Shown here piece after piece: positions 34,596 to 37,701 of a stretch of DNA of 39,195 bases; within the stretch, counting starts at the first letter, position 1; each line of letters starts with the position of its first letter. This DNA comes from Escherichia phage JEP4. The DNA lies in sequence record MT740315.1; one strand, given 5' to 3'. A program made the translations under genes and the position numbers. Below the pieces are notes generated by a model. It searched no databases and was not told the origin of the DNA. It was given only the letters and a program-made list of their open reading frames with translations.

Positions 34596-34798
34596 CGTTC
34601 TCAGTAAAAAACATTCCAGACATGCTCGTTGAAGCATACGGAAACCAGACAGAAGTAGCACGCAGACTGAAATGTAGTCGCGGCACGGTCAGAAAATACG
34701 TTGATGATAAAGACGGGAAAATGCACGCCATCGTCAACGACGTTCTCATGGTTCATCGCGGATGGAGTGAAAGAGATGCGCTATTACGAAAGAATTGA
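34592..34798 (+). CDS. ninH: NinH
   Basis: [68 protein letters not shown], lambda NinH-like. Confidence 0.8.
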
Positions 34799-35447
34799 TG
34801 GCAGCAAATACCGGAATATTTGGGTAGTTGGCGATCTGCACGGATGCTACACGAACCTGATGAAAAAACTGGAGACGATAGGATTCGACATCAAAAAAGA
34901 CCTGCTTATCTCGGTTGGCGATTTGGTCGATCGCGGTACAGAGAACGTCGAATGCCTGGAATTAATCACATTCCCCTGGTTCAGAGCTGTACGTGGAAAC
35001 CATGAGCACATGATGATTGATGGCTTATCAGAGCGTGGAAACGTCAATCACTGGCTGCTTAATGGCGGTGTCTGGTTCTTTAATCTCGATTACGACAAAG
35101 AAATTCTGGCTAAAGCTCTTGCCCATAAAGCAGAAGAACTTCCGTTAATCATCGAACTGGTGAGCAAAGGTAAAAAATATGTCATCTGCCACGCCGATTA
35201 TCCTTGTGACGAATACGAATTTGGAAAGCCAGTTGATCATCAGCAGGTAATCTGGAACCGCGAACGAATCAGCAACTCACAAGACGGGATCGTGAAAGAA
35301 ATTAAAGGCGCGGACACGTTTATCTTTGGTCATACGCCAGCAGTGAAACCACTTAAATTTGCCAACCAAATGTATATCGATACCGGCGCAGTGTTCTGCG
35401 GAAACCTCACATTGATTCAGGTACAGGGAGAAGGCGCGTGGGCATAA
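34776..35447 (+). CDS. Ser/Thr protein phosphatase (lambda NinI/PPase-type)
   Basis: Metallophosphatase motifs GDLHGC, GDLVDRG, GNHE; matches lambda phosphatase as recalled. Confidence 0.9.
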
Positions 35448-35926
35448 GAGAACTAAACCTCACCAAAGAACAGCATGAGTGGCTGAATGGCTGGCTTGAA
35501 CTGTGGGGCGCATGGGTTTATTCAGGTCGTCTGGAAAAGCGCATGAGCAGCGTAATAGCGAAGTTCATGGAGAGCGTAGAGCCGGGAAGAGTTATGACAA
35601 GGCCAATGTGCAATGATGATGATGGAATGTTGATTTCTCAGGTCGTCGATTCCGTCATGTGCATTGACAAGAAAGCCTTTGGCATCCTCCTCAGCTACTA
35701 CGCCCACGGTTCTTCCAAGCACGCCATTGCATCTTACTATCATCGCGTCGCAAGACCTCGCAAGATGTTATGCCGGGGCGGCGGGCGCATTCAAAAACCA
35801 TCGCTCGCAACCTGTCGTCGGGAAGTTGACGAAATCCTCAATGCCTCGTTGTTTATGATTTACCCGGTTCTGGATAGTGCGTTTAAAAACCGGAAACGTG
35901 TAGAGAAAATTAAACATGTAGCGTAG
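35438..35926 (+). CDS. Late-gene antiterminator Q (non-lambda, phage-82/QuuD-like family)
   Basis: GTG start with GGGAGAAGG SD; WLELWGAWV and [10 protein letters not shown] resemble recalled QuuD (WGAW, RPQCCDDDAM); sits directly upstream of late promoter region and lysis genes. Confidence 0.65.
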
Positions 35927-36060
35927 AACGTGTTGACATCATTGAGCAAATGAGCAACACTATTCGCATAAGCTGCCGTTAGTGACTCTTAAGTTGCAAC
36001 GGTGGCTTTTTTTGTTTGCACAACAGGTAAGAGCATTGAACCCGCAGACCTCGCGGAATT
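35927..36060 (+). promoter_or_regulatory. Late promoter (PR-prime-like) and Q-utilisation region; exact -10/-35 not resolved
   Basis: TTGACA at 35933 directly after Q; weak hairpin with T7 run (TGGCTTTTTTTG) near 36000; position by analogy with lambdoid late control. Confidence 0.3.
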
Positions 36061-36298
36061 GGTGAAAGGTGCCGCGCAGTGCTCTTATCGTTGTGGTGAA
36101 TGCACAGGCTGATGTGTAAGGGCAAGAATCTTTCGCTGGATTCGGTATGGCCACGTAGCCAGCTGTAGGCAGTTGCAGCAAACCGGAGATCAGCACCGGT
36201 CGCCACAATCCAAACTGAGCCGTAGCCACTGGATGTCCTGAATTCATCAGTGATAGTTATGCTGCGGCCTTCTACACATGATCTTCGTGAAAGCGGGC

Positions 36299-36335
36299 GG
36301 CATGAGGTTGCGCTAACAACCTCATGCCGTTTTGC
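36299..36335 (+). terminator. Strong rho-independent terminator in Q-S intergenic region (tR-prime-like)
   Basis: 12-bp perfect stem GGCATGAGGTTG / CAACCTCATGCC with 6-nt loop, followed by GTTTTG. Confidence 0.6.
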
Positions 36336-36453
36336 CCGTGCATATCGGTCACGAACAAATCTGATTACTAAACACAGTAGCCTGGATTTGTTCTATCAGT
36401 AATCGACCTTATTCCTAATTAAATAGAGCAAATCCCCTTATTGTGGGTAAGAC

Positions 36454-36777
36454 ATGAAGATGACAGAAAAACATGACCTGTTAGCCGCCATTCTCGCGGC
36501 AAAGGAACAAGGCATCGGGGCAATCCTTGCGTTTGCAATGGCGTACCTTCGCGGCAGATATAATGGCGGTGCGTTTACAAAAACAGTAATCGACGCAACG
36601 ATGTGCGCCATTATCGCCTGGTTCATTCGTGACCTTCTCGACTTCGCCGGACTAAGTAGCAATCTCGCTTATATAACGAGCGTGTTCATCGGCTACATCG
36701 GTACTGACTCGATTGGTTCGCTTATCAAACGCTTCGCTGCTAAAAAAGCCGGAGTAGAAGATGGTGGAAATCAATAA
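36454..36777 (+). CDS. S: Holin, lambda S-type (dual start Met1/Met3)
   Basis: [67 protein letters not shown] matches lambda S as recalled. Confidence 0.95.
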
Positions 36778-37237
36778 TCAACGTAAGGCGTTCCTCGATA
36801 TGCTGGCGTGGTCAGAGGGAACTGATAACGGACATCAGAAAACCAGAAATCATGGTTATGACGTCATTGTTGGCGGAGAGCTATTTACTGATTACTCCGA
36901 TCACCCTCGCAAGCTTGTCACGCTAAACCTCAAACTCAAATCAACAGCAGCCGGTCGCTACCAGCTTCTTTCACGCTGGTGGGATGCCTACCGCAAGCAA
37001 CTTGGCCTGAAAGATTTTTCTCCAGAAAGCCAGGATGCTGTAGCGCTGCAGCAGATTAAAGAGCGTGGCGCTTTACCGATGATTGACCGCGGTGATATTC
37101 GTCAGGCAATTGACCGTTGCAGCAATATCTGGGCTTCACTGCCGGGCGCTGGTTATGGTCAGTTCGAGCATAAGGCTGACAGCCTGATTGCAAAATTCAA
37201 AGAAGCAGGCGGAACGGTCAGAGAGATTGAGGTATGA
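36761..37237 (+). CDS. R: Endolysin, lambda R-type lytic transglycosylase
   Basis: [24 protein letters not shown]...; matches lambda R as recalled. Confidence 0.95.
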
Positions 37238-37701
37238 GCAGAGTAACCGCGATTATCTCCGCTCTGATTATCTGCATCATCGTCTGCCTGTCATGGGCTG
37301 TTAATCATTACCGTGATAACGCCATCGCCTATAAAGAACAGCGCGATAACAAGGCCAGTGAACTGGAGAAGGCGAACGCCACCATTACTGACATGCAGCA
37401 GCGCCAGCGTGATGCTGATGCGCTCGATGCTAAATACACGAAGGAGTTAGCTGATGCGAAAGCTGAAAATGATGCTCTTCGGCGCAAGCTTGATAATGGT
37501 GGTCGGGTGTTCGTCAAAGGAAAATGCCCTATGCCATCCTCAGCCGAAACCTCCAGCGCCTCCGGCATGGGCAATGATGCCACCGTCGAACTCTCTCCAG
37601 TTGCTGGACGAAACGTTCTCGGTATCCGGGACGGAATCATCAGCGACCAAACAGCACTGAGAACGCTTCAGGAATACATCAGGACGCAATGCCTTCGATG
37701 A
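37234..37701 (+). CDS. Rz: Spanin inner-membrane subunit Rz (divergent C-terminal half)
   Basis: N-terminus [31 protein letters not shown] as lambda Rz; ATGA overlap with R; contains Rz1 in the +1 frame. Confidence 0.8.
37454..37660 (+). CDS. Rz1: Spanin outer-membrane lipoprotein Rz1 (embedded in Rz)
   Basis: [21 protein letters not shown] lipobox; proline-rich [16 protein letters not shown]. Confidence 0.75.

Follow-up and report, generated by a model that had tools for sequence, protein, structure and literature searches.

The late control region of Escherichia phage JEP4 (sequence record MT740315.1) was analysed within a window of 39,195 nucleotides, that is, the whole stretch of DNA under study, and its features are collected in Table 1; the sequence identities, element positions and predicted folds given here were observed directly. 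The last of the nin genes overlaps the start of Q with its 3' end, and Q is followed by a spacer and a set of lysis genes in the lambda-type order, comprising a class I dual-start holin, a transglycosylase R and an Rz gene with embedded Rz1. The product of S is identical to lambda S at 105 of 107 residues, and the DNA on both sides of the Q region is lambda-like: positions 35352-35440 are 95.5% identical to lambda 43800-43888, the likeness stopping at about 35440, and positions 36204-37481 are 94.4% identical to lambda, with the homology ending inside Rz at 37481. This bears out an earlier sequence-only reading of the region, in which the nin genes upstream and S and R downstream were said to match lambda. 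The remainder of the window resembles a complete P22-like genome. Two open reading frames are present on the minus strand of the spacer, 35960-36247 (95 aa) and 35979-36206 (75 aa), both of which had been regarded as probably not genes; we agree, as the Pfam search gave no matches for either of them and the similarity found in divergent relatives fragments into different frames.

Table 1. Genes, control elements and predicted RNA structures in the late control region of phage JEP4.
Feature	Position	Strand	Basis or detail
ninI/orf221-type Ser/Thr phosphatase gene, last nin gene	34779-35447	+	Pfam Metallophos, 2.8e-16
Q antiterminator, phage 21 type	35438-35926	+	162 aa, GTG start
paQ-type antisense promoter inside Q	35731-35763	-	phage 21 annotation mapped via alignment
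paQ -10, TAAGAT	35731-35736	-	sequence confirmed
paQ CII-type site, TTGCN6TTGC	35750-35763	-	sequence confirmed
Late promoter PR', phage 21 type	35933-35961	+	identical to phage 21; features as annotated in OL657228
PR' -35, TTGACA, perfect	35933-35938	+	identity with phage 21
Q binding element (QBE), two 8-bp direct repeats, ATTGAGCA+AATGAGCA	35941-35956 (-27 to -12)	+	identical to phage 21
PR' -10, AACACT, poor, 17-bp spacer from -35	35956-35961	+	identity with phage 21
Transcription start, A	35968	+	mapped from phage 21 annotation
Sigma-dependent pause element, TAAGCTG, -10-like	35969-35975 (+2 to +8)	+	identical to annotated phage 21 element
tR' late leader terminator	35970-36013 (+3 to +46)	+	fold and identity with phage 21 tR'
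Long leader hairpin, CACAACAGGUAAGAGCA ... UGCUCUUAUCGUUGUG, optional 'domain 1' ahead of the RNA motif	36019-36095	+	fold
Pseudoknotted three-way-junction RNA motif, 120 nt	36090-36209	+	covariation, loop-loop changes, distribution
Motif P1, 9 bp	36090-36098 with 36201-36209	+	predicted fold
Motif AA	36099-36100	+	predicted fold
Motif P2 hairpin, loop GGCUGA	36101-36118	+	predicted fold
Motif variable insert	36119-36181	+	predicted fold
Motif P3 hairpin, loop AGAUCAGCA	36182-36200	+	predicted fold
Conserved lambda-type S leader hairpin	36293-36339	+	12-bp stem, homologous to lambda about 45031-45067
Stem-loop just 5' of S start	36434-36447	+	alignments
Holin/antiholin S, lambda-type dual start Met1-Lys2-Met3	36454-36777	+	PF05106, 4.5e-30
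Endolysin R, lambda-type transglycosylase	36761-37237	+	153/158 identical to lambda R
Rz i-spanin	37234-37701	+	PF03245, 2e-29; 94/155 identical to lambda Rz
Rz1, embedded in Rz, +1 frame	37454-37660	+	ORF list

The sequence-only reading had proposed that a Q of non-lambda type feeds the lambda-type lysis genes, and had named comparison of Q with the known Q families and alignment of the spacer with the late regions of other phages as ways to examine this. No similarity was found between JEP4 Q and lambda Q (BLASTP E = 4), and the Pfam search gave no match of JEP4 Q to PF03589, the family of which lambda Q itself is a member (193 bits). The protein scores 87.2 bits on PF06530 (cut-off 26; E = 1e-24) and is identical to the Q21 chains 6JNX_P and 6P18_P at 161 of 162 residues (E = 3e-108), the sole change from the crystallised protein being Y75C. 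The DNA from 35425 to 36018 is likewise 98.5% identical to the phage 21 record OL657228. Judged by these alignments JEP4 Q is the Q of phage 21 itself, not a phage-82-type protein, and the mosaic nature of the junction is upheld. The length of Q and its GTG start with a Shine-Dalgarno sequence, here GGAG at 8-9 nt 5' of the start codon, were correctly described; the DNA alignment shows that the homologous codon of phage 21 is ATG, and the substitution of GTG could reduce the translation of Q.

Not one base differs between JEP4 and phage 21 from 35927, just past the stop codon of Q, to 36013, where the U7 run stops; the promoter with its -10 and QBE, the start, the pause element and the terminator are shared base for base, as is the paQ/CII site inside Q. 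The repeat sequence of the QBE is that given in PMC8022706 and agrees with the preprint on the Q21 structure (bioRxiv 10.1101/651190). The promoter and qut element had been expected to be of a non-lambda type, which they are; the accompanying statement that no convincing -35/-10 pair could be resolved does not hold, the pair being present and identifiable by its identity with that of phage 21. A consensus scan for promoters and terminators called neither PR' nor tR'. It misses the -35/-10 pair because the -10 matches at three of six positions only, and this explains the failure of the sequence-only reading to find it; the scan is too strict both for such a -10 and for a bulged stem, and PR' and tR' were therefore placed by their identity with phage 21. 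The hairpin with a T7 run that had been noted near 36000 is present (T7 at 36007-36013), but it is not weak as had been supposed: the stem at 35970-36008 has 17 pairs with one bulge and a folding energy of -20.2 kcal/mol (z = -5.3), which no shuffle out of 200 equalled. By its identity with the phage 21 element this hairpin is tR', the terminator that functions in the late leader of that phage, and an RNA ending there, when unmodified, is predicted to be about 44-47 nt long.

Further downstream, the lambda-type S leader contains a very stable hairpin in which 36299-36310 pairs with 36317-36328, followed by a G and by UUUU at 36330-36333, with a possible outer helix formed by 36293-36298 and 36334-36339. 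Its local fold reaches -31.6 kcal/mol (z = -6.1), and one pair of the stem is compensatory, being U-A in JEP4 and G-C in lambda. The sequence-only reading had called this structure (36299-36335) a strong terminator; the 12-bp stem exists and recurs in lambda, but this G+C-rich stem is followed by just four U residues and the terminator scan makes no call. The hairpin is a conserved element of the S leader of lambda type, and its U tract is poor. Immediately 5' of S, at what we take to be the sdi position of lambda, is a smaller stem-loop that has GTGGG in JEP4 versus GGGGG in lambda, HK75, Sf6 and CUS-3, and whose local fold is no better than that of shuffles. Overall, the sequence features described in the sequence-only reading were all confirmed at the positions given there, and its interpretation is partly supported.

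The region is very probably the late switch of a P22-like temperate coliphage, in which that of phage 21 has been joined by recombination to lysis genes of lambda type. Such a switch would have been built by recombination from three known modules: the phage 21 late cassette of Q21, PR'21, QBE, pause element and tR' (35425-36018), a structured leader segment which travels independently of the Q type (36019-36209), and the lambda-type S leader together with S, R and the 5' half of Rz (36204-37481). Promoter activity, pausing, the loading of Q and the nozzle mechanism are those to be expected from published work on phage 21. Without Q, a polymerase starting at 35968 would pause and then terminate at the U7 run to give a short RNA of about 45 nt. 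With Q present, two protomers would bind the QBE and load on to the sigma-70-containing paused complex, and one of them would remain with the enzyme, forming a ring ('nozzle') at its RNA exit channel, where it would block the formation of terminator hairpins and so permit read-through of tR' and all later hairpins into the late genes; the loading and nozzle mechanism of Q21 is described in bioRxiv 10.1101/651190.

In lambdoid and P22-like phages it is common, and well documented, for Q alleles and lysis cassettes to meet at mosaic joints, and a Q21-type cassette ahead of lambda-type lysis genes is already described in Sf6, HK75, CUS-3 and HK629. These phages, together with phage L, have a Q21-like cassette (gene 59 in Sf6, gene 23 in L) at the same genome position as JEP4, share the leader from +2 including tR', and carry lambda-type S, R and Rz downstream. 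Their Q proteins are of 172 aa and 85% identical overall to JEP4 Q, diverging after residue 94, and their QBE repeats are AATTATCC/ATTTAGCC as compared with ATTGAGCA/AATGAGCA in JEP4 (PMC8022706); in contrast to these phages, JEP4 has the true phage 21 allele of both the protein and its site. Apart from the start codon and Y75C, the differences from phage 21 lie on either side of the cassette. Upstream of Q there is a full ninI in JEP4 and a ninH fragment in phage 21, whilst downstream of tR' the structured leader and lambda-type S and R of JEP4 stand in the place of the tRNA-Asn, tRNA-Thr, S21 pinholin and SAR endolysin of phage 21. Lambda is alike in its logic, with a Q gene, a constitutive promoter, an early terminator and lysis genes, and JEP4 shares 94% identity with it over the S leader (from the point equivalent to 36204), S, R and the N-terminal half of Rz. 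However, the Q of lambda (PF03589) is unrelated, its promoter, QBE and 194-nt 6S leader are missing from JEP4, and the C-terminal half of Rz and Rz1 are present in JEP4 as another allele. At least 80% of the 1.1-kb junction is present in 451 of 5426 complete E. coli genomes, and at least 80% of the 191-nt middle segment of the window in just 34 of them; E. coli strain 7/2 (NZ_CP023820.1) is 100% identical over this middle segment.

The segment at 36019-36209 is predicted to form a structured RNA, in which a pseudoknotted three-way-junction motif, with complementary P2 and P3 loops (GCUGA/UCAGC), is preceded by a long hairpin. The latter folds at -36 kcal/mol (z = -3.1) and is also intact in lambda; its stem recurs in other phages with a different apical part, and this 'domain 1' hairpin accompanies 68 of 207 copies of the motif. 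Among 150 distinct cores, changes on both sides were found in 17 of the 24 proposed pairs, a value reached by none of 500 shuffles, and the loop-loop pairing between P2 and P3 shows compensatory changes among copies. Phage and prophage contigs that bear the motif number in the hundreds and come from several bacterial phyla, a 23-base core being identical in 102 species-representative genomes that also span several phyla. In its minimal form the insert is reduced to 6 nt and the whole core is kept, and a degenerate copy occurs in the late leader of lambda. Copies are placed either downstream of Q/PR'/tR' or in the interval that separates a cI-like repressor gene from an N gene, in both cases within the leader of an antiterminated operon, and the motif often occupies the slot otherwise held by phage tRNA genes; phage 21 and Sf6 have tRNA-Asn and tRNA-Thr at this position of the spacer. 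Where tRNAs lie within 400 nt they are co-oriented with the motif: a same-strand tRNA precedes 16 of the 218 copies and follows 21, with one case on the opposite strand.

In its outline the motif is similar to a tRNA or to the tRNA-like domain of tmRNA, in that it combines a closing helix with two hairpins that interact through their loops (compare the D and T loops of the tRNA elbow). It differs from a tRNA in having no anticodon arm, a loop contact of five to six Watson-Crick pairs and a P1 of 9 bp. The HK75-type variant carries a canonical T-loop, GGTTCGATTCC; its similarity to the tmRNA domain, the sole suggestive hit in Rfam, is weak and falls short of the gathering score (20 bits, E = 6.6e-5). 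ARAGORN called no tRNA or tmRNA in the JEP4 window, and tRNAs are also absent from the close relatives of the spacer. A strict reading with an encoded 3' CCA acceptor end was dropped, since CCA lies within 6 nt in just 70 of 218 copies of the motif and P1 reaches 9 bp. The motif does not correspond to a hammerhead ribozyme, its GAA and CUGAUG standing in the wrong order for such a core and with too little distance between them, and the Rfam hammerhead models gave no match. Nor does it correspond to the put RNA of HK022, in which neither half of the motif was matched, with up to seven mismatches, over positions 22000-40751, a region that we assume spans the put sites. Searching Rfam 15 with a 206-nt stretch gave no family match to the motif even at E <= 10. 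The P1 c4 RNA and the T4 species 1 and 2 RNAs, small phage RNAs processed by RNase P, are to be grouped with these tRNA-like molecules as the closest systems. The motif was matched by no Rfam model. A literature search by motif sequence returned no match, and the motif is not described in the accessible parts of work on prophage sRNAs (Pas sRNAs) or of a catalogue of viral structured RNAs.

Several other explanations of the region have to be weighed against these findings. Motifs noted in the sequence-only reading had placed Q in a phage-82/QuuD family, in which case an 82-type qut site and a pause further downstream would be expected. The likeness to QuuD of prophage DLP12 holds at the family level only, QuuD being itself a PF06530 protein that is 29% identical to JEP4 Q, whilst Q82 is assigned to another family, PF06323 (PMC9388147), to which JEP4 Q gave no match at E <= 0.01 in the Pfam search. 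With the protein one residue away from Q21, and the QBE, pause element and terminator all the same as in phage 21, we attach virtually no weight to an 82-type switch. It is also conceivable that the cassette is decaying, the GTG that replaces the ATG of phage 21 and the Y75C substitution leaving Q weak or non-functional and the late operon silent or dependent on a helper. This we consider very improbable: GTG starts are common in bacteria, the open reading frame is intact, its Shine-Dalgarno sequence is kept, every cis element is identical to that of phage 21 and, outside this region, the window has the appearance of a complete P22-like genome. Moreover, contact with the QBE is made by the divergent C-terminal part of Q, which begins at residue 94 (PMC8022706), and residue 75 lies outside this part. 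Rather more can be said for the 12-bp hairpin of the S leader as a second intrinsic terminator, in tandem with tR', which would tighten the block on the lysis genes when Q is lacking; the stem is very stable, UUUU follows, and the structure is kept from lambda to the P22-like phages with its one compensatory pair. However, the four U residues are succeeded by a G, the scan makes no call, the minimum-energy fold places the U residues in a bulge within a longer helix, and the stem has one mismatch each in HK75 and Sf6. No paper on tandem late terminators in lambda came up in the accessible literature, and on balance a terminator role for this hairpin seems unlikely.

As for the structured segment, its position is exactly that of the tRNA genes in phage 21 and Sf6, phage L also has tRNA genes there, and the T-loop and weak tmRNA-domain match of the HK75-type variant would be in keeping with a decayed remnant of a tRNA gene that has no function of its own. 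Such a remnant would not be expected to show an identical core across so many genomes and several phyla, changes on both sides of most of its proposed pairs or compensation between its loops, and the minimal form, in which the full core is retained, is unlike a decaying pseudogene; we therefore regard this origin as quite improbable. The reading that we prefer is that the motif is cut from the leader as a stable tRNA-like RNA which acts in trans. More generally, we put forward as a serious but still tentative possibility that 36090-36209, with the optional hairpin at 36019-36095, represents a widespread and undescribed class of phage-borne RNA with kissing loops and the shape of a tRNA 'top half'. 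The near-invariance of the 23-base core across the Gamma-, Beta- and Alphaproteobacteria and several other phyla suggests a universally conserved binding partner in the host, candidates for which are RNase P or another tRNA-handling enzyme, the ribosome and RNA polymerase.

The Q21 switch, whose structures have been solved, is textbook material and the mosaic itself adds nothing new; what has been gained is that every late-control element of JEP4 is now placed to the base. The motif, if functional, would be a new component of operon leaders in temperate phages, those of late operons and sometimes of early-left ones, an RNA fold which is conserved far beyond the enterobacterial phages and is small enough for direct biochemistry.

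The Q protein of the late-control region lies in a 162-aa open reading frame with a GTG start, as a sequence-only reading of this DNA had proposed, together with the view that Q is not of the lambda type. Both points stand. When compared with all PDB chains, the product is identical at 161 of 162 residues to the phage 21 "Q protein" (entries 6JNX/6JNY and 6P18-6P1C), Y75C being the sole residue difference, and it falls in Pfam family PF06530 (87 bits; cut-off 26), whereas lambda Q is itself a PF03589 protein to which no similarity was found (E = 4). Three Q families are distinguished, Q21 (PF06530), Q-lambda (PF03589) and Q82 (PF06323) (PMC9388147). The suggested affinity to a phage-82/QuuD family was half correct: QuuD, encoded by the DLP12 prophage of K-12, also belongs to PF06530 (179 bits) and is thus related at family level only (29% identical), but a phage 82-type Q is ruled out by the identity to Q21 and by the lack of a PF06323 match for this protein in the Pfam search. 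On its sequence, the window Q is that of phage 21. The homologous phage 21 codon to the GTG at 35438-35440 is ATG, and apart from this and Y75C there is no notable difference from the studied Q21.

Features of the late-control region (positions in the window; promoter elements numbered from the start site)
Feature	Position	Strand	Remarks
Lambda-like ninI, left flank	up to 35440	+	homology to lambda
Phage 21 Q module	35425-36018	+	98.5% to phage 21
Q ORF	35438-35926	+	GTG start, 162 aa, GGAG upstream
paQ-type antisense promoter	35731-35763	-	inside Q; identical to phage 21 annotation
-10 of paQ, TAAGAT	35731-35736	-	as in phage 21
CII-type site of paQ, TTGCN6TTGC	35750-35763	-	kept from phage 21
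-35 TTGACA	35933-35938	+	-35 to -30, phage 21 annotation
QBE, ATTGAGCA + AATGAGCA	35941-35956	+	-27 to -12, phage 21 annotation
-10 AACACT	35956-35961	+	-12 to -7, phage 21 annotation
Start site A	35968	+	+1, phage 21 annotation
Pause element TAAGCTG	35969-35975	+	+2 to +8, phage 21 annotation
tR'	35970-36017	+	+3 to +50, phage 21 annotation
U7 run of tR'	36007-36013	+	3' of hairpin
Segment right of tR'	36007-36039		matches lambda 44775-44807
Middle segment	36010-36297		98.6% to HK629 and E212; ~79% to HK75 and S.Inf 5-2
P1	36090-36098 with 36201-36209	+	GUUGUGGUG pairs with CGCCACAAU
AA after P1 5' strand	36099-36100	+
P2 hairpin	36101-36118	+	loop GGCUGA
Variable insert	36119-36181	+	between P2 and P3
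P3 hairpin	36182-36200	+	loop AGAUCAGCA
Lysis side	36204-37481	+	94.4% to lambda
12-bp stem	36299-36310 with 36317-36328	+	-31.6 kcal/mol, z = -6.1

The elements of the late promoter PR' were placed by carrying over, through alignment, the annotation of the complete phage 21 genome (OL657228), window coordinates being equal to those of the phage 21 locus (L004) + 33638. Over the Q module the two sequences align without gaps, and the stretch 35927-36013, which begins at the first base 3' of the Q stop codon and closes with the U7 run, has zero differences. The Q binding element (QBE) is consistent with the sequence described in PMC8022706 and matches the pair of 8-bp direct-repeat subsites in the Q21 structure preprint (bioRxiv 10.1101/651190). 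A promoter and qut element of non-lambda type had been expected correctly, but the -35/-10 pair, which had not been resolved then, is placed by this alignment; as the -10 has just 3/6 consensus bases, PR' was overlooked at that stage and was not called by our consensus promoter scan.

The hairpin preceding the U7 run, first described as weak, is the late leader terminator tR': the RNA of 35968-36016 forms a stem of 17 pairs, interrupted by one bulge (-20.2 kcal/mol, z = -5.3), and none of 200 shuffles folded as well. With this stable stem and the U7 run, transcription by unmodified polymerase is expected to end in the release of a ~44-47-nt RNA. The 12-bp stem, taken earlier for a strong terminator, is present and stable, but it is followed by UUUU only, was not called terminator-like in the terminator scan, and in the minimum-energy fold these U's sit in a bulge within a longer helix; a terminator role is possible, though less likely than not, and Q-modified polymerase would pass this hairpin in any case. 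It lies in a stretch homologous to lambda ~45031-45067. At one pair of the stem the window and CUS-3 have U-A, lambda has G-C, and HK75 and Sf6 each have a mismatch.

The switch is expected to follow the mechanism demonstrated for Q21 (bioRxiv 10.1101/651190), every functional statement here being drawn from sequence identity to phage 21. The sigma-70 holoenzyme would initiate at PR' and pause at the -10-like element, the paused complex would be docked by two Q protomers sitting on the QBE repeats, and Q would pass to the elongation complex as a torus, narrowing and extending the RNA exit channel, as a result of which terminator hairpins are proposed to be unable to form. The late operon would then be transcribed, S, R and Rz/Rz1 first, followed by the genes for packaging and the head, which lie at the opposite end of the window.

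The whole window is a P22-like mosaic, with CUS-3, HK620, E212 and Huey as relatives, and a phage 21 Q cassette before lambda-type lysis genes in such phages is an already known and common arrangement. The lambda-like character of the nin genes upstream and of S and R downstream had been recognised from the outset (identity to lambda 105/107 for S and 153/158 for R, with 94/155 for Rz). The left flank and the phage 21 module overlap in a short shared junction near the Q start, and lambda homology ends at 37481, inside Rz (37234-37701). Rz in its C-terminal half, together with the embedded Rz1, is a different allele from that of lambda; Sf6 likewise has an annotated boundary sequence within Rz. 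Of 5426 complete E. coli genomes, 451 cover at least 80% of the 1.1-kb junction, and just 34 cover the window's own variant of the middle segment to the same extent. HK75, Sf6 and CUS-3 encode a Q of 172 aa, 85% identical to the window Q and divergent past residue 94, and their QBE repeats also differ, whereas the leader is common from +2 onward, which places a recombination joint at the start site (35968-35969). Q and its binding site travel together, a pairing of alleles already discussed in PMC8022706. In HK629, PR' is followed by another short leader with its own terminator, an HNH endonuclease gene and then the phage 21-type tR' hairpin, so that PR' is separated from the shared leader by two terminators and an inserted gene. 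Just 5' of the S start, at the lambda sdi position, the stem-loop at 36434-36447 (CCCCTTATTGTGGG) differs from that of lambda, HK75, Sf6 and CUS-3, which ends in GGGGG; a weaker stem is to be expected from this change, and the S start-codon ratio, hence lysis timing, could shift.

Two minus-strand ORFs (35960-36247 and 35979-36206) overlap tR' and the structured leader. Neither has a Pfam match, and they are trivially preserved in the near-identical HK629 and E212, while in HK75, CUS-3, S.Inf 5-2, ep3 and a Klebsiella phage similarity is limited to fragments in differing frames; these are not genes, as had been thought probable.

RNA running from 35968 up to the S start has a much more stable predicted fold than its shuffled versions (z = -6.1), and when the middle segment is aligned from eleven phages its ends are conserved and its centre is variable, with indels. 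The predicted core of this RNA motif (36090-36209) is a pseudoknotted three-way junction in which the P2 and P3 loops are complementary (GCUGA/UCAGC); across the family the insert measures 6-166 nt (median 74), the minimal member having 6 nt only. In a core alignment, A7, of 150 distinct sequences with the insert taken out, 94.9% of cells are paired, against 26-50% with partners slid by 1-3 columns; both sides have changed in 17 of 24 pairs (shuffles 6.8 +/- 1.3, 0/500 reaching the observed value), and the covariation score is 0.155 versus 0.073. The seeds of A7 held one motif half fixed at a time, which depresses variation, chiefly in the loops. A scan for loop-1 variants gave 11 loci, two of the same sequence: loop 2 has a compensating change in four (GUUGAU/AUCAAC in L321; GCCGA/UCGGC in L324, L325 and L326), one is wobble-compatible and six, representing five distinct sequences, show no compensation. 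The motif has no match among the Rfam 15 families, also when the segment is searched alone at E <= 10; ARAGORN finds no tRNA in the window, RefSeq annotates nothing at the motif, and a literature search for its core sequences gave no match.

Scans of viral contigs with either motif half gave at least 120 matches each, and phage and prophage contigs with the motif number in the hundreds, across several bacterial phyla. In a collection of species-representative genomes, 102 contigs contain the 23-mer GGTGAATGCGCAGGCTGATGCGC without mismatch (one Pantoea genome supplies three of them), among them contigs of Gamma-, Beta- and Alphaproteobacteria and of MAGs labelled Geobacteraceae, Acidobacteriota, Phycisphaerales and Coriobacteriia. 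The 218 distinct copies are co-oriented with their neighbours. Holins, from seven families, are the commonest product of the first same-strand ORF downstream (~26 of 140), with lysozyme in 3 and N antiterminator peptide in 4; the nearest upstream ORF is a Q protein of one of the three families in 8 + 4 + 3 of 119 cases and an S24/HTH repressor in 10. These neighbours place the motif in leaders of antiterminated operons, whatever the type of antiterminator. An accessory hairpin, as at 36019-36095, precedes it in 68 of 207 copies. In lambda (~44784-44949, 3' of tR') this hairpin is intact (CACAACAGGTAAGAGCA...TGCTCTTTCCGTTGTG) and is followed by a degenerate core without P2. Both parts also occur in the unrelated myovirus Jilinvirus vB_EcoM-ep3 outside a Q/lysis context, and the module thus moves independently.

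The motif fills the slot in which phage 21, Sf6 and L have tRNA genes, and a same-strand tRNA gene lies within 400 nt upstream of 16 and downstream of 21 of the 218 copies (opposite strand, 1 only). The HK75-type variant carries a canonical T-loop (GGTTCGATTCC) and matches the tRNA-like domain of tmRNA, though below threshold (20 bits, E = 6.6e-5), which hints at a tRNA-like ancestry of the family. A tRNA relic without function is the less likely explanation, as the conservation of the motif speaks against it. Identity with the put RNA of HK022 is not favoured either, since the motif is absent from HK022 22000-40751. The motif could be a cis-acting leader element for processing or stabilisation. 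The likeliest reading, though still tentative and somewhat short of probable, is that a tRNA-shaped RNA may be cut from the leader, its kissing loops mimicking the tRNA elbow and a conserved host factor being its target. The Q/lysis mosaic itself is of low interest, and it is this RNA motif of the spacer that is the one lead worth passing on.
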